Shown here: positions 6,223-7,212 of the stretch, in pieces
Position numbering within the stretch: the stretch's first letter is position 1
How the letters are laid out: every line of letters starts with the position of its first letter
Origin: Oligoflexales bacterium
GTDB lineage: Bacteria; Bdellovibrionota_B; Oligoflexia; Oligoflexales; Bog-1112
Assembly: GCA_045105515.1 (NCBI GenBank)
Contig: JBGCDR010000179.1
Location: 1-30,546, forward strand
DNA: 30,546 bases
Direction of reading: 5' to 3'
The notes under the pieces: model-generated
What the model saw: the letters and a program-made list of their open reading frames with translations, nothing else
The model's database searches: none
What the model was told of the DNA's origin: nothing
Made by a program: the position numbers and the translations under genes

Positions 6223-7212
6223 TTACTTATCACTATCAACTTTCAGCTGACAACAATAAAATGAATGCCGACGATCCTGAACATCTGGATAAAACGTAGA
6301 CTTCACACGCTTTAGGATAGCATTAGGAATTGGCAAAACTTCAAAATTAACAACTAATCCACCTAGAGGCAAAAGCCCAGCGCCAGTGCAGTTATAGTCC
6401 AACTCACTCATACGCTTATTAACTTCAATATTCGGCTTGAAGCCAGGAAACGCTCCAGTTGCGGCCGGAATCTCAGCCTCATTGCTAGCACACATCTCTA
6501 ATTCTTGCCCTGTTTGCAAGGTTTCAAAATTCGACGTAAGTTTTTCACCACTTTGCTCCGAGCGAGCTTCACAGCATTCATACTGAAAAACTCGGTCTTT
6601 ACTTTGTTCATTATATGAGCTGACCTGACCTGCTAAGTACTTATCATCTGGACATGAATAATCAAGGACAGTATCGCTTATCGGATCAGATAACGAACAT
6701 TCGCTCTTCCTAATAAGAACTCCTTGTCCATCGGTTAAAAATTGGCACCGGAACTGATAAGTTCGGTCTCTATTATTGTCATCATTATTCCACTCACTTT
6801 TTTCACCAGCTAAGAAAGAATCTCCAGGACAATGATAACTTACTGCCCCTTTGGGATTATTTTGCATGGGTGACAAATACGAACCTATGCTCCCTTTTAA
6901 GTAAATAACTTGATTGGGATCACCATTTGGAATAGGTGGACCTCCAGCACTGGTCTTCCCAGTTCCCGATGTTCCTGTAGGGGATTCTGGATCTGTTCCA
7001 TCGCCTTCTGAATCTGTCCCACCGGTATCAATAGCATCAGTAAAGAATCCATCCGAAAAGCTATCTCCTGAGCCATCATCTCCCTCAGAGTCAGAGCCAC
7101 TTGGCTGTTGAATTGGCGGACGACTTGGATTCTGCTTAGTAGGTGTAGATTCTTGCACACATGCCAACAACCCGCTAAAGTAGCAAATTATTAAAAAATA
7201 TAGTCGATTCAT
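6223..7212 (-). CDS. Lipoprotein with dermatopontin/amebocyte-aggregation-factor-like repeats
   Basis: Probable start MNRLYF at 7212 (AAGGA upstream), lipobox LLAC, G/S/D/P linker, then three C-P..LAG..S....DR-x-[YFH]-x-[FY]-x-C repeats. Confidence 0.75.
   Translation of the reverse strand: MNRLYFLIICYFSGLLACVQESTPTKQNPSRPPIQQPSGSDSEGDDGSGDSFSDGFFTDAIDTGGTDSEGDGTDPESPTGTSGTGKTSAGGPPIPNGDPNQVIYLKGSIGSYLSPMQNNPKGAVSYHCPGDSFLAGEKSEWNNDDNNRDRTYQFRCQFLTDGQGVLIRKSECSLSDPISDTVLDYSCPDDKYLAGQVSSYNEQSKDRVFQYECCEARSEQSGEKLTSNFETLQTGQELEMCASNEAEIPAATGAFPGFKPNIEVNKRMSELDYNCTGAGLLPLGGLVVNFEVLPIPNAILKRVKSTFYPDVQDRRHSFYCCQLKVDSDK

Follow-up and report, generated by a model that had tools for sequence, protein, structure and literature searches.

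The 30,546-nt window analyzed here, comprising positions 1 to 30,546 of contig JBGCDR010000179.1 from an Oligoflexales bacterium (assembly GCA_045105515.1), carries on its minus strand a gene that almost certainly encodes a lipoprotein with a domain of the dermatopontin family (Pfam DERM, PF14704), hereafter the DERM lipoprotein. The longest open reading frame (ORF) at this position spans 6223..7272, and the likely start codon is the ATG at 7212, yielding a 329-aa product; this start is preferred because an AAGGA sequence is located 8 nt upstream and because the close homologues P0002-P0005, from public data, begin at the corresponding place. The gene is solitary, being convergent with a small zinc-ribbon gene (5889..6182, plus strand) and divergent from an ORF that encodes a signal peptide (7385.., plus strand). 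Its GC content resembles that of its surroundings, and the genes that flank it are ordinary bacterial genes. The host genome comprises 6.29 Mb in 461 contigs and is estimated to be 90.9% complete and 4.8% contaminated.

The predicted protein begins with M-N-R, followed by a hydrophobic stretch and the lipobox L-L-A-C18, with Val as residue +2 (Table 1). This N-terminus combines the positive n-region, the hydrophobic core and the lipobox of a lipoprotein signal, for which the lipobox pattern [LVI][ASTVI][GAS]C was applied, and lipidation of Cys18 is inferred from it. The signal is followed by an acidic tether of 87 aa, 82% of which are G, S, T, P, D, E, Q or N, with 15 acidic versus 3 basic residues; the tether is not alignable among the homologues, whereas the remainder of the protein is. 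The DERM domain itself is 224 residues long and contains cysteines at positions 128, 156, 172, 187, 213, 214, 241, 275, 320 and 321 and exactly three D-R dipeptides (149, 206 and 313), each of which is followed by an aromatic-x-aromatic pattern and a cysteine, with His occupying the first aromatic place after the third D-R. The third repeat is interrupted by a hydrophobic insertion (residues ~277-295) that remains unmatched when the protein is compared with animal DERM proteins by hhalign and that has predicted local distance difference test (pLDDT) values of 38-56 in the AlphaFold2 (AF2) model; the insertion is kept in P0002-P0005 and is shorter or absent in more distant homologues. Because no catalytic family of Pfam or NCBIfam matches the DERM lipoprotein (NCBIfam produced no match of any kind), the domain is probably non-enzymatic. 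The original prediction, made from the letters of the window, had described a lipobox lipoprotein with an acidic G/S/P linker of ~80 aa, three dermatopontin-like repeats and a hydrophobic insertion of ~20 aa in the third of them, and all these features were recovered, with the quoted repeat strings falling at ~residues 126-156, 183-214 and 271-321 (placed by eye) and 19 residues of the insertion left unmatched.

Table 1. Features of the DERM lipoprotein gene in the window and flagellin-family genes at the corresponding loci of relatives
Feature	Position	Strand	Basis or remark
Coding sequence, 329-aa DERM lipoprotein	6223..7212	-	Stop codon 6223-6225; start backed by ribosome-binding site and homologue N-termini
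Sigma-28 (FliA)-like promoter, TAAC-N15-ACCGATAA	7254..7280	-	~41 nt upstream of the start codon
Shine-Dalgarno-like AAGGA	7221..7225	-	8 nt 5' of the ATG at 7212
Signal peptide with lipobox L-L-A-C, residues 1-18	7159..7212	-	Cys18 is the predicted lipidated residue
Acidic low-complexity tether, residues 19-105	6898..7158	-	Composition and non-alignability
DERM domain, residues 106-329, 10 Cys	6226..6897	-	Pfam PF14704, hhalign, AF2, ESM Atlas
Repeat 1, ~residues 124-156 (C128...D149-R150...C156)	6745..6843	-	
Repeat 2, ~residues 183-214 (C187...D206-R207...C213-C214)	6571..6666	-	
Repeat 3, ~residues 271-321 (C275...D313-R314...C320-C321), interrupted by insertion	6250..6402	-	
Hydrophobic insertion, ~19 aa, ~residues 277-295, inside repeat 3	6328..6384	-	hhalign gap and low pLDDT
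Divergent flagellin-family gene after the DERM gene (loci of relatives)	L012 8204-9205; L014 8206-9141; L016 8064-9167; L029 2672-3631		

Relationship to the dermatopontin family

The Pfam DERM profile matches the protein in three stretches with 74.2 bits, against a gathering cut-off of 28.3 (E=1.8e-20). The precomputed annotation of the source database already assigns PF14704 to this protein, so the domain call itself, having been made automatically in at least one source, is not new. The relationship to the animal proteins was assessed by hhalign comparison between a seven-sequence Oligoflexales alignment, in which the window domain is combined with six homologues encoded by related genomes, and an alignment of six animal proteins from Lymnaea, Physella, Aplysia, Nematostella, hagfish and lamprey, which are named dermatopontin or hemagglutinin/amebocyte aggregation factor (HAAF) in their source. 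The two alignments matched with a probability of 99.2% (E=1.4e-19) over 151 columns, corresponding to query residues 116-325 and covering the three repeats; C128, C156, C172, C187, C213/214 and C241 fall in register with cysteines of the animal proteins, and C275 and C320/321 have no counterpart in the six animal sequences. A search of 1.84 billion representatives with the profile of the seven bacterial homologues produced 1022 matches at E<=1e-3, of which 439 reached E<=1e-10; the six animal proteins listed above were among those retrieved. Among the best 150 proteins, the Pfam DERM profile was detected at E<=1e-5 in 146 of the 148 others, the exceptions being P0012 and P0094.

The AF2 model, computed from the seven-sequence alignment, is all-beta, with a pLDDT of 76.2 and a predicted template-modelling (TM) score of 0.75. 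The ESM Atlas has its own model of the protein, to which the structurally nearest entry is a cluster of mollusc HAAF-like proteins; 95% of the cluster members contain DERM, and the TM scores are 0.63/0.68 over 157 residues, in a comparison of folds that involves predicted models only. The PDB yielded no matches in a sequence search with the protein, and a search with the profile of the animal proteins retrieved no DERM member from it, the sole hit being a non-significant match to fibrinogen. The Pfam profile, the profile-profile comparison, the reciprocal search and the similarity of predicted structures all agree with the homology to dermatopontin and HAAF that had been proposed for this protein, and judging from these comparisons the domain, though divergent, truly belongs to the dermatopontin/HAAF (Pfam DERM) family, with three pseudo-repeats and, around the third, loops specific to the lineage. 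Rows 2-4 of the Atlas results consist of Actinomycetota hypothetical proteins of ~190 aa (TM 0.62/0.73-0.74) and a Bacteroidota cluster containing Vps62, without DERM annotation; the DERM fold may be spread more widely among bacteria than the Pfam annotation suggests.

Passages of two papers (PMC7971027, PMC4133350) present dermatopontin as a protein of the extracellular matrix and of immunity in animals, and DERM as a known matrix-binding or cell-aggregating module of animals. The bacterial domain resembles animal dermatopontin and HAAF in belonging to the same domain family, in the three pseudo-repeats that end in D-R-x-aromatic-x-aromatic and then Cys, in the aligned cysteine columns and in the predicted character of a small, secreted, non-enzymatic, disulfide-rich all-beta module. 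However, the identity between the two amounts to only ~22% in the hhalign comparison, and the animal proteins are free, secreted and ~180 aa long, whereas the bacterial protein would be held by a lipid and an 87-aa tether. The signatures H-x-N-x-x-E-D-R and V-N-x-x-D of the animal proteins are absent from the bacterial one, which for its part has in repeat 3 a starting Cys and a terminal Cys-Cys that are missing from the six aligned animal proteins. The bacterial domain also contains ~60 extra loop residues before and inside repeat 3; three bacterial stretches are unmatched by hhalign, two of them between repeats 2 and 3 and one (19 residues) within repeat 3, and these coincide with the regions of lowest pLDDT in the AF2 model.

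Distribution, paralogues and possible linkage to motility genes

Of the 15 other genomes in the host's GTDB family, 14 have DERM matches; no match was detected among the 45 genomes of the order's other families or the 115 other genomes of the phylum. Within the family, there are two to four DERM matches per genome, which fall into three paralogue classes. Class A, to which the window gene belongs, comprises lipoproteins of 300-380 aa with a low-complexity tether and a DERM domain with insertions. Class B consists of secreted proteins of 220-270 aa in which a signal peptide precedes DERM, and class C of proteins of ~580 aa, in which an N-terminal part of ~400 aa without a Pfam match is joined to a compact canonical DERM. 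Classes B and C share the domain and the genomes with class A and differ from it by having neither lipobox nor tether. The class A layout is present in 39 of the best 150 representatives, those looked up being metagenome singletons, and a hydrophobic N-terminus ending in Cys is found in 31 of these 39 by a scripted rule. Fusions of the class C type are seen at loci L003 (1489-3195, minus strand), L004, L042 and L043 and in the public proteins P0035 and P0059. The host genome contains a second DERM remnant of the canonical animal-like motif type, at ~1500-1800 of locus L002 (G000:C71:5004-7800), which is broken between repeats by a stop codon and a frameshift; the remnant is adjoined by a Cys-rich 305-aa ORF with a sub-threshold match to IBR (half-RING), at 22 bits versus a cut-off of 24.3.

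Elsewhere in bacteria, DERM occurs in a protein of 189 aa, the cluster of which includes Beggiatoa and Parabeggiatoa metagenome-assembled genome (MAG) records, and on proteins of the prepilin type. The 386-aa cluster member P0155 bears the NCBI name of a prepilin-type N-terminal cleavage/methylation protein, P0081 combines N_methyl and TIGR02532 matches with a C-terminal DERM, and P0024, P0066 and P0117 have pilin-like N-termini, as judged by eye, and again a C-terminal DERM. In the prepilin-DERM proteins, as in class A, a bacterial DERM is attached to an anchor in the envelope or outside the cell, and both groups fall on one side of the tree described below; the anchor of the prepilin-DERM proteins, however, is a type IV pilin N-terminus instead of a lipid, and their domains keep the canonical animal-like motifs and have no insertions. 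No pilin-type frame was present among the DERM frames seen in the host's GTDB family (f1), and DERM was not found in the 115 other genomes of the phylum. The partner domains of DERM in proteins of the eukaryotic type are F5/8-C, ricin-B, SUEL-lectin, Sushi, TSP1 and MACPF. A scan of genome contigs retrieved only a MAG of the same genus (L010) and, in a Nostoc sp. contig (L011, 4001-4075), a 25-residue match with 56% identity to the end of repeat 3.

A quick maximum-likelihood tree was built from 87 domains, namely those of 74 of 153 proteins that had one match covering at least 135 of the 176 profile positions (79 proteins were dropped by this rule), supplemented by 13 rows of the pilin type, class C and class A. 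One side of a branch with a Shimodaira-Hasegawa-like approximate likelihood-ratio test (SH-aLRT) value of 90 contains all 10 bacterial rows labelled by their features, six class A rows and eight unlabelled rows; all seven named animal rows and 13 rows with partner domains of the eukaryotic type are located on the opposite side. Class A forms a clade with 98% support. A class A tree built separately is too poorly resolved to judge whether the window gene is orthologous to the flagellin-linked genes described below. The phylogenetic comparison with animal and bacterial homologues that had been suggested in the original prediction separates class A from the animal rows, on a tree that is rooted at its midpoint. 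DERM-containing genes also appear among the candidates listed in a paper on horizontal gene transfer in S. rosetta (PMC7971027). The first 21 of the 32 rows of its Table S1 show the PF14704 candidates to be multi-domain proteins of ~1400-2400 aa, with best foreign hits in a diatom, Bacteroidetes, Streptomyces and others (PMC7971027). These hits may be driven by the EGF or NHL parts of the proteins, and the paper does not settle the origin of DERM.

The window gene is a long-resident gene of its lineage, neither contamination nor a recent import, as indicated by the lipobox, the ribosome-binding site, a GC content like that of the surroundings, the bacterial neighbours, the presence of DERM in nearly all genomes of the family and the placement in the tree. 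The term "animal-type", which had been attached to the repeat, is misleading and finds no support, since the protein belongs to a bacterial set of DERM domains.

Upstream of the gene, within the discarded N-terminal extension of the long frame, lies a putative promoter of the sigma-28 (FliA) type. Compared with the sigma-28 consensus TAAA-N15-GCCGATAA, it matches 3/4 and 7/8 positions with the 15-nt spacing. The pattern TAAN-N16-CCGATAA has a single match in the 30.5-kb window, where 0.07 would be expected, and at least one match was obtained in 7 of 100 shuffles. The same motif is located upstream of L007, from the same genus, and of L014, from another genus (G009), where the encoded protein is 26% identical. 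The genome contains two FliA-type sigma factors above the NCBIfam cut-off (TIGR02479, 287 and 215 bits), encoded on contigs C108 and C10, and eight flagellin-like genes. Among 24 DERM loci of relatives, four (in G012, G009, G013 and G007, from three genera) have a flagellin-family gene 3' of the DERM gene on the same strand, a count that is a lower bound because several loci end at contig ends. The gaps between the two genes are ~8-16 nt in L012, L014 and L016, which suggests that DERM and flagellin belong to one operon there, and ~60-70 nt in L029. Control of the window gene by sigma-28 is a tentative proposal, with the odds somewhat on the other side. Sequences of the form TAAA-N15/16-CCGATA(A/T) often precede genes for lipoproteins with Ser-rich tethers on many contigs of the host genome (G000; L057, L058, L050). 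Twenty ORFs 3' of such motifs include one for a CheA-like protein and several for lipoproteins, such as a VWA protein and a Big_2 protein of 903 aa, and 11 have no Pfam match; a sigma-28-type regulon of this bacterium may be rich in surface proteins.

The remaining surroundings of the gene can be described briefly. In the loci of relatives that were compared, no homologue outside the genus has any of these flanking genes as a neighbour. Two plus-strand ORFs, 7385..7636 and 7551..8141, overlap in different frames and look like one gene split by a frameshift, the putative product consisting of a signal peptide and a beta-rich protein without a Pfam match; a copy of the first part with 59% identity is found beside the DERM gene of the same genus. 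At 74..5702 lies a metal-homeostasis cluster encoding two CobW-family GTPases, a NicO/DsbD_2-like membrane protein, a pyridine-nucleotide-disulfide oxidoreductase, MerC and a Fur-family regulator. A small ORF at 13891..14277 (plus strand; matches from 13807) encodes pentatricopeptide (PPR) repeats (PPR_2, E=1.1e-17), a repeat type characteristic of organelle proteins in eukaryotes; PPR_2 has no matches elsewhere in this genome, and 14 control genomes had none. The genome also has 18 matches to ankyrin repeats (Ank_2) on about ten contigs (C56, C32, C260, C153, C333 and others), including one in a multi-repeat frame of 792 aa, and these matches hint at dealings with eukaryotic cells. DNA sequencing runs containing the locus number three only, all from one study and labelled plant metagenome; they may be the source itself, and so they provide no independent evidence of habitat or expression.

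Proposed function and alternatives

As a whole, these observations are best explained by a tethered DERM binding module that is made together with motility genes, a reading to which we assign a probability of roughly 0.6. Upon cleavage of the signal peptide, the protein would be lipidated at Cys18, and the 87-residue acidic and disordered tether would hold the all-beta DERM domain (~220 residues, 10 Cys) away from the membrane, where it would act as a rigid, disulfide-locked, non-enzymatic binding module. With many copies per cell, the cell itself could behave as a multivalent "agglutinin", and the bacterium would adhere to a surface, be it that of a host, of prey, of a plant or of a matrix, or else to an envelope polymer of the cell itself. 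Production would coincide with that of late motility genes, that is, with a swimming, surface-seeking state. The binding-module interpretation derives from the pilin, lectin and matrix-domain fusions of DERM found elsewhere and from its matrix-binding or cell-aggregating role in animals, for which work by Fujii from 1992 is reportedly a source; motility-coupled production is suggested by the sigma-28-type promoter and by the flagellin operons that contain homologues in relatives. The adhesin or agglutinin function named in the original prediction is a reasonable proposal, helped by the pilin and lectin fusions, with about even odds that the protein is an outward-facing adhesin. The HpaA-type adhesin lipoproteins of the flagellar sheath and outer membrane of Helicobacter pylori offer a functional analogy only, that is, for the mode of action, and no relation in sequence or fold to the DERM lipoprotein is claimed. 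HpaA is a lipoprotein "hemagglutinin" tied to the flagellar regulon.

Several results weigh against this reading. With respect to the fold, confidence in the AF2 model is only moderate (pLDDT 76), and Foldseek found no matches to it in the PDB at E<=1e-3; the structural check proposed for the dermatopontin assignment is borne out by the mollusc HAAF neighbour in the Atlas, among predicted models. The assignment of a solved fold by VIA-align among 48,161 chains was rejected, as all top matches, which comprise the beta-prism domains of Vip3A (Z 5.9) and Vip3Cb1 (Z 5.7), the C-terminal domain of PCSK9 (Z 3.7) and the WGA16 lectin (Z 2.5), fall below the stated noise level of the tool. With respect to regulation, the full promoter motif is present at only three of nine homologues examined and is partial or absent at the other six, a relaxed version, with 87 matches across the genome, shows no clear excess over scrambled controls (35-104), and a loosely similar motif precedes only three of the eight flagellin genes of the genome (by eye). 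The window gene has no adjoining flagellin gene, and the genome's counterpart flagellin-like gene (L024) follows a gene for a methyl-accepting chemotaxis protein-like product. No RNA run containing the locus is listed. The split between bacterial and animal domains, with an SH-aLRT value of 90 and a midpoint root, is not strongly supported, and 51 of the 87 rows are unlabelled, the "bacterial" labels resting on features and not on taxonomy. Finally, the amino acid sequence does not discriminate between a surface and a periplasmic location.

This last point bears on the alternative that survives best, unlikely as it is, in which the lipoprotein is turned towards the periplasm or forms part of the flagellar apparatus (sheath, basal disk or another envelope scaffold), and the partner bound by DERM is in the envelope or flagellum of the same cell. 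The co-transcription of homologues with a flagellin-like gene in G012, G009 and G013 and the adjoining gene in G007 would be in line with such a role, as would the sigma-28-like promoter; the long tether could equally span the periplasm, and ten cysteines suit an oxidizing periplasm as well as the outside of the cell. However, the window gene and most homologues (20 of 24 loci) do not lie beside flagellar genes, the presence of DERM on prepilin-type proteins and beside lectin domains points to an exposed binding role, and three paralogue classes with several members per genome look more like a diversifying surface family than like a fixed part of a machine. A very improbable explanation would make the DERM lipoprotein a metal-homeostasis (e.g. 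zinc-related) component of the neighbouring Fur-family/CobW/MerC/NicO cluster, to which the acidity of the tether and the genes at 74-5702 would be fitting; yet the DERM gene is separated from this cluster by a convergent gene and transcribed alone, the cluster genes recur beside no homologue in the loci of relatives compared, and the lipoprotein contains neither His-rich stretches nor known metal-binding motifs. That the gene was recently acquired from an animal, or that the assembly is contaminated with eukaryotic DNA, is scarcely credible: the family was described from animals, a mollusc cluster comes closest to the domain in predicted structure and the genome has other eukaryote-like repeats (PPR in the window and the ankyrin matches), but the lipobox, ribosome-binding site, promoter and flanking genes are bacterial, the GC content is unremarkable, the other genomes of the family carry DERM in several paralogues each, and the domain, at ~22% identity to the animal proteins, is placed among bacterial domains in the tree.

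Significance of the bacterial DERM proteins

The DERM lipoprotein is part of a sizeable bacterial DERM group with architectures of its own, including lipid-tethered, pilin-fused and flagellin-linked forms and fusions to a ~400-aa domain without a Pfam match. Full-text searches on dermatopontin combined with bacterial, horizontal-transfer, lectin or amebocyte-aggregation-factor topics found no description of bacterial members, and the group, with its forms as lipoproteins, pilin fusions and flagellin-linked proteins, is apparently undescribed. For the family, such proteins are a tractable bacterial source for a first experimental DERM structure, as no DERM-family sequence was found in the PDB, and for the poorly known, uncultured Oligoflexales lineage the protein is a candidate attachment factor. 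The group also provides a data set for asking whether, and in which direction, DERM moved between bacteria and the ancestors of animals. One improbable but far-reaching scenario would be that DERM is an old bacterial surface-adhesion fold, represented here by a lipid-tethered, motility-coupled adhesin that is co-transcribed with flagellin and perhaps located on the flagellar sheath or at the cell pole, and that holozoan dermatopontin and HAAF came from such a bacterial donor. If this were true, a classic "animal matrix" protein would be of bacterial adhesin origin.

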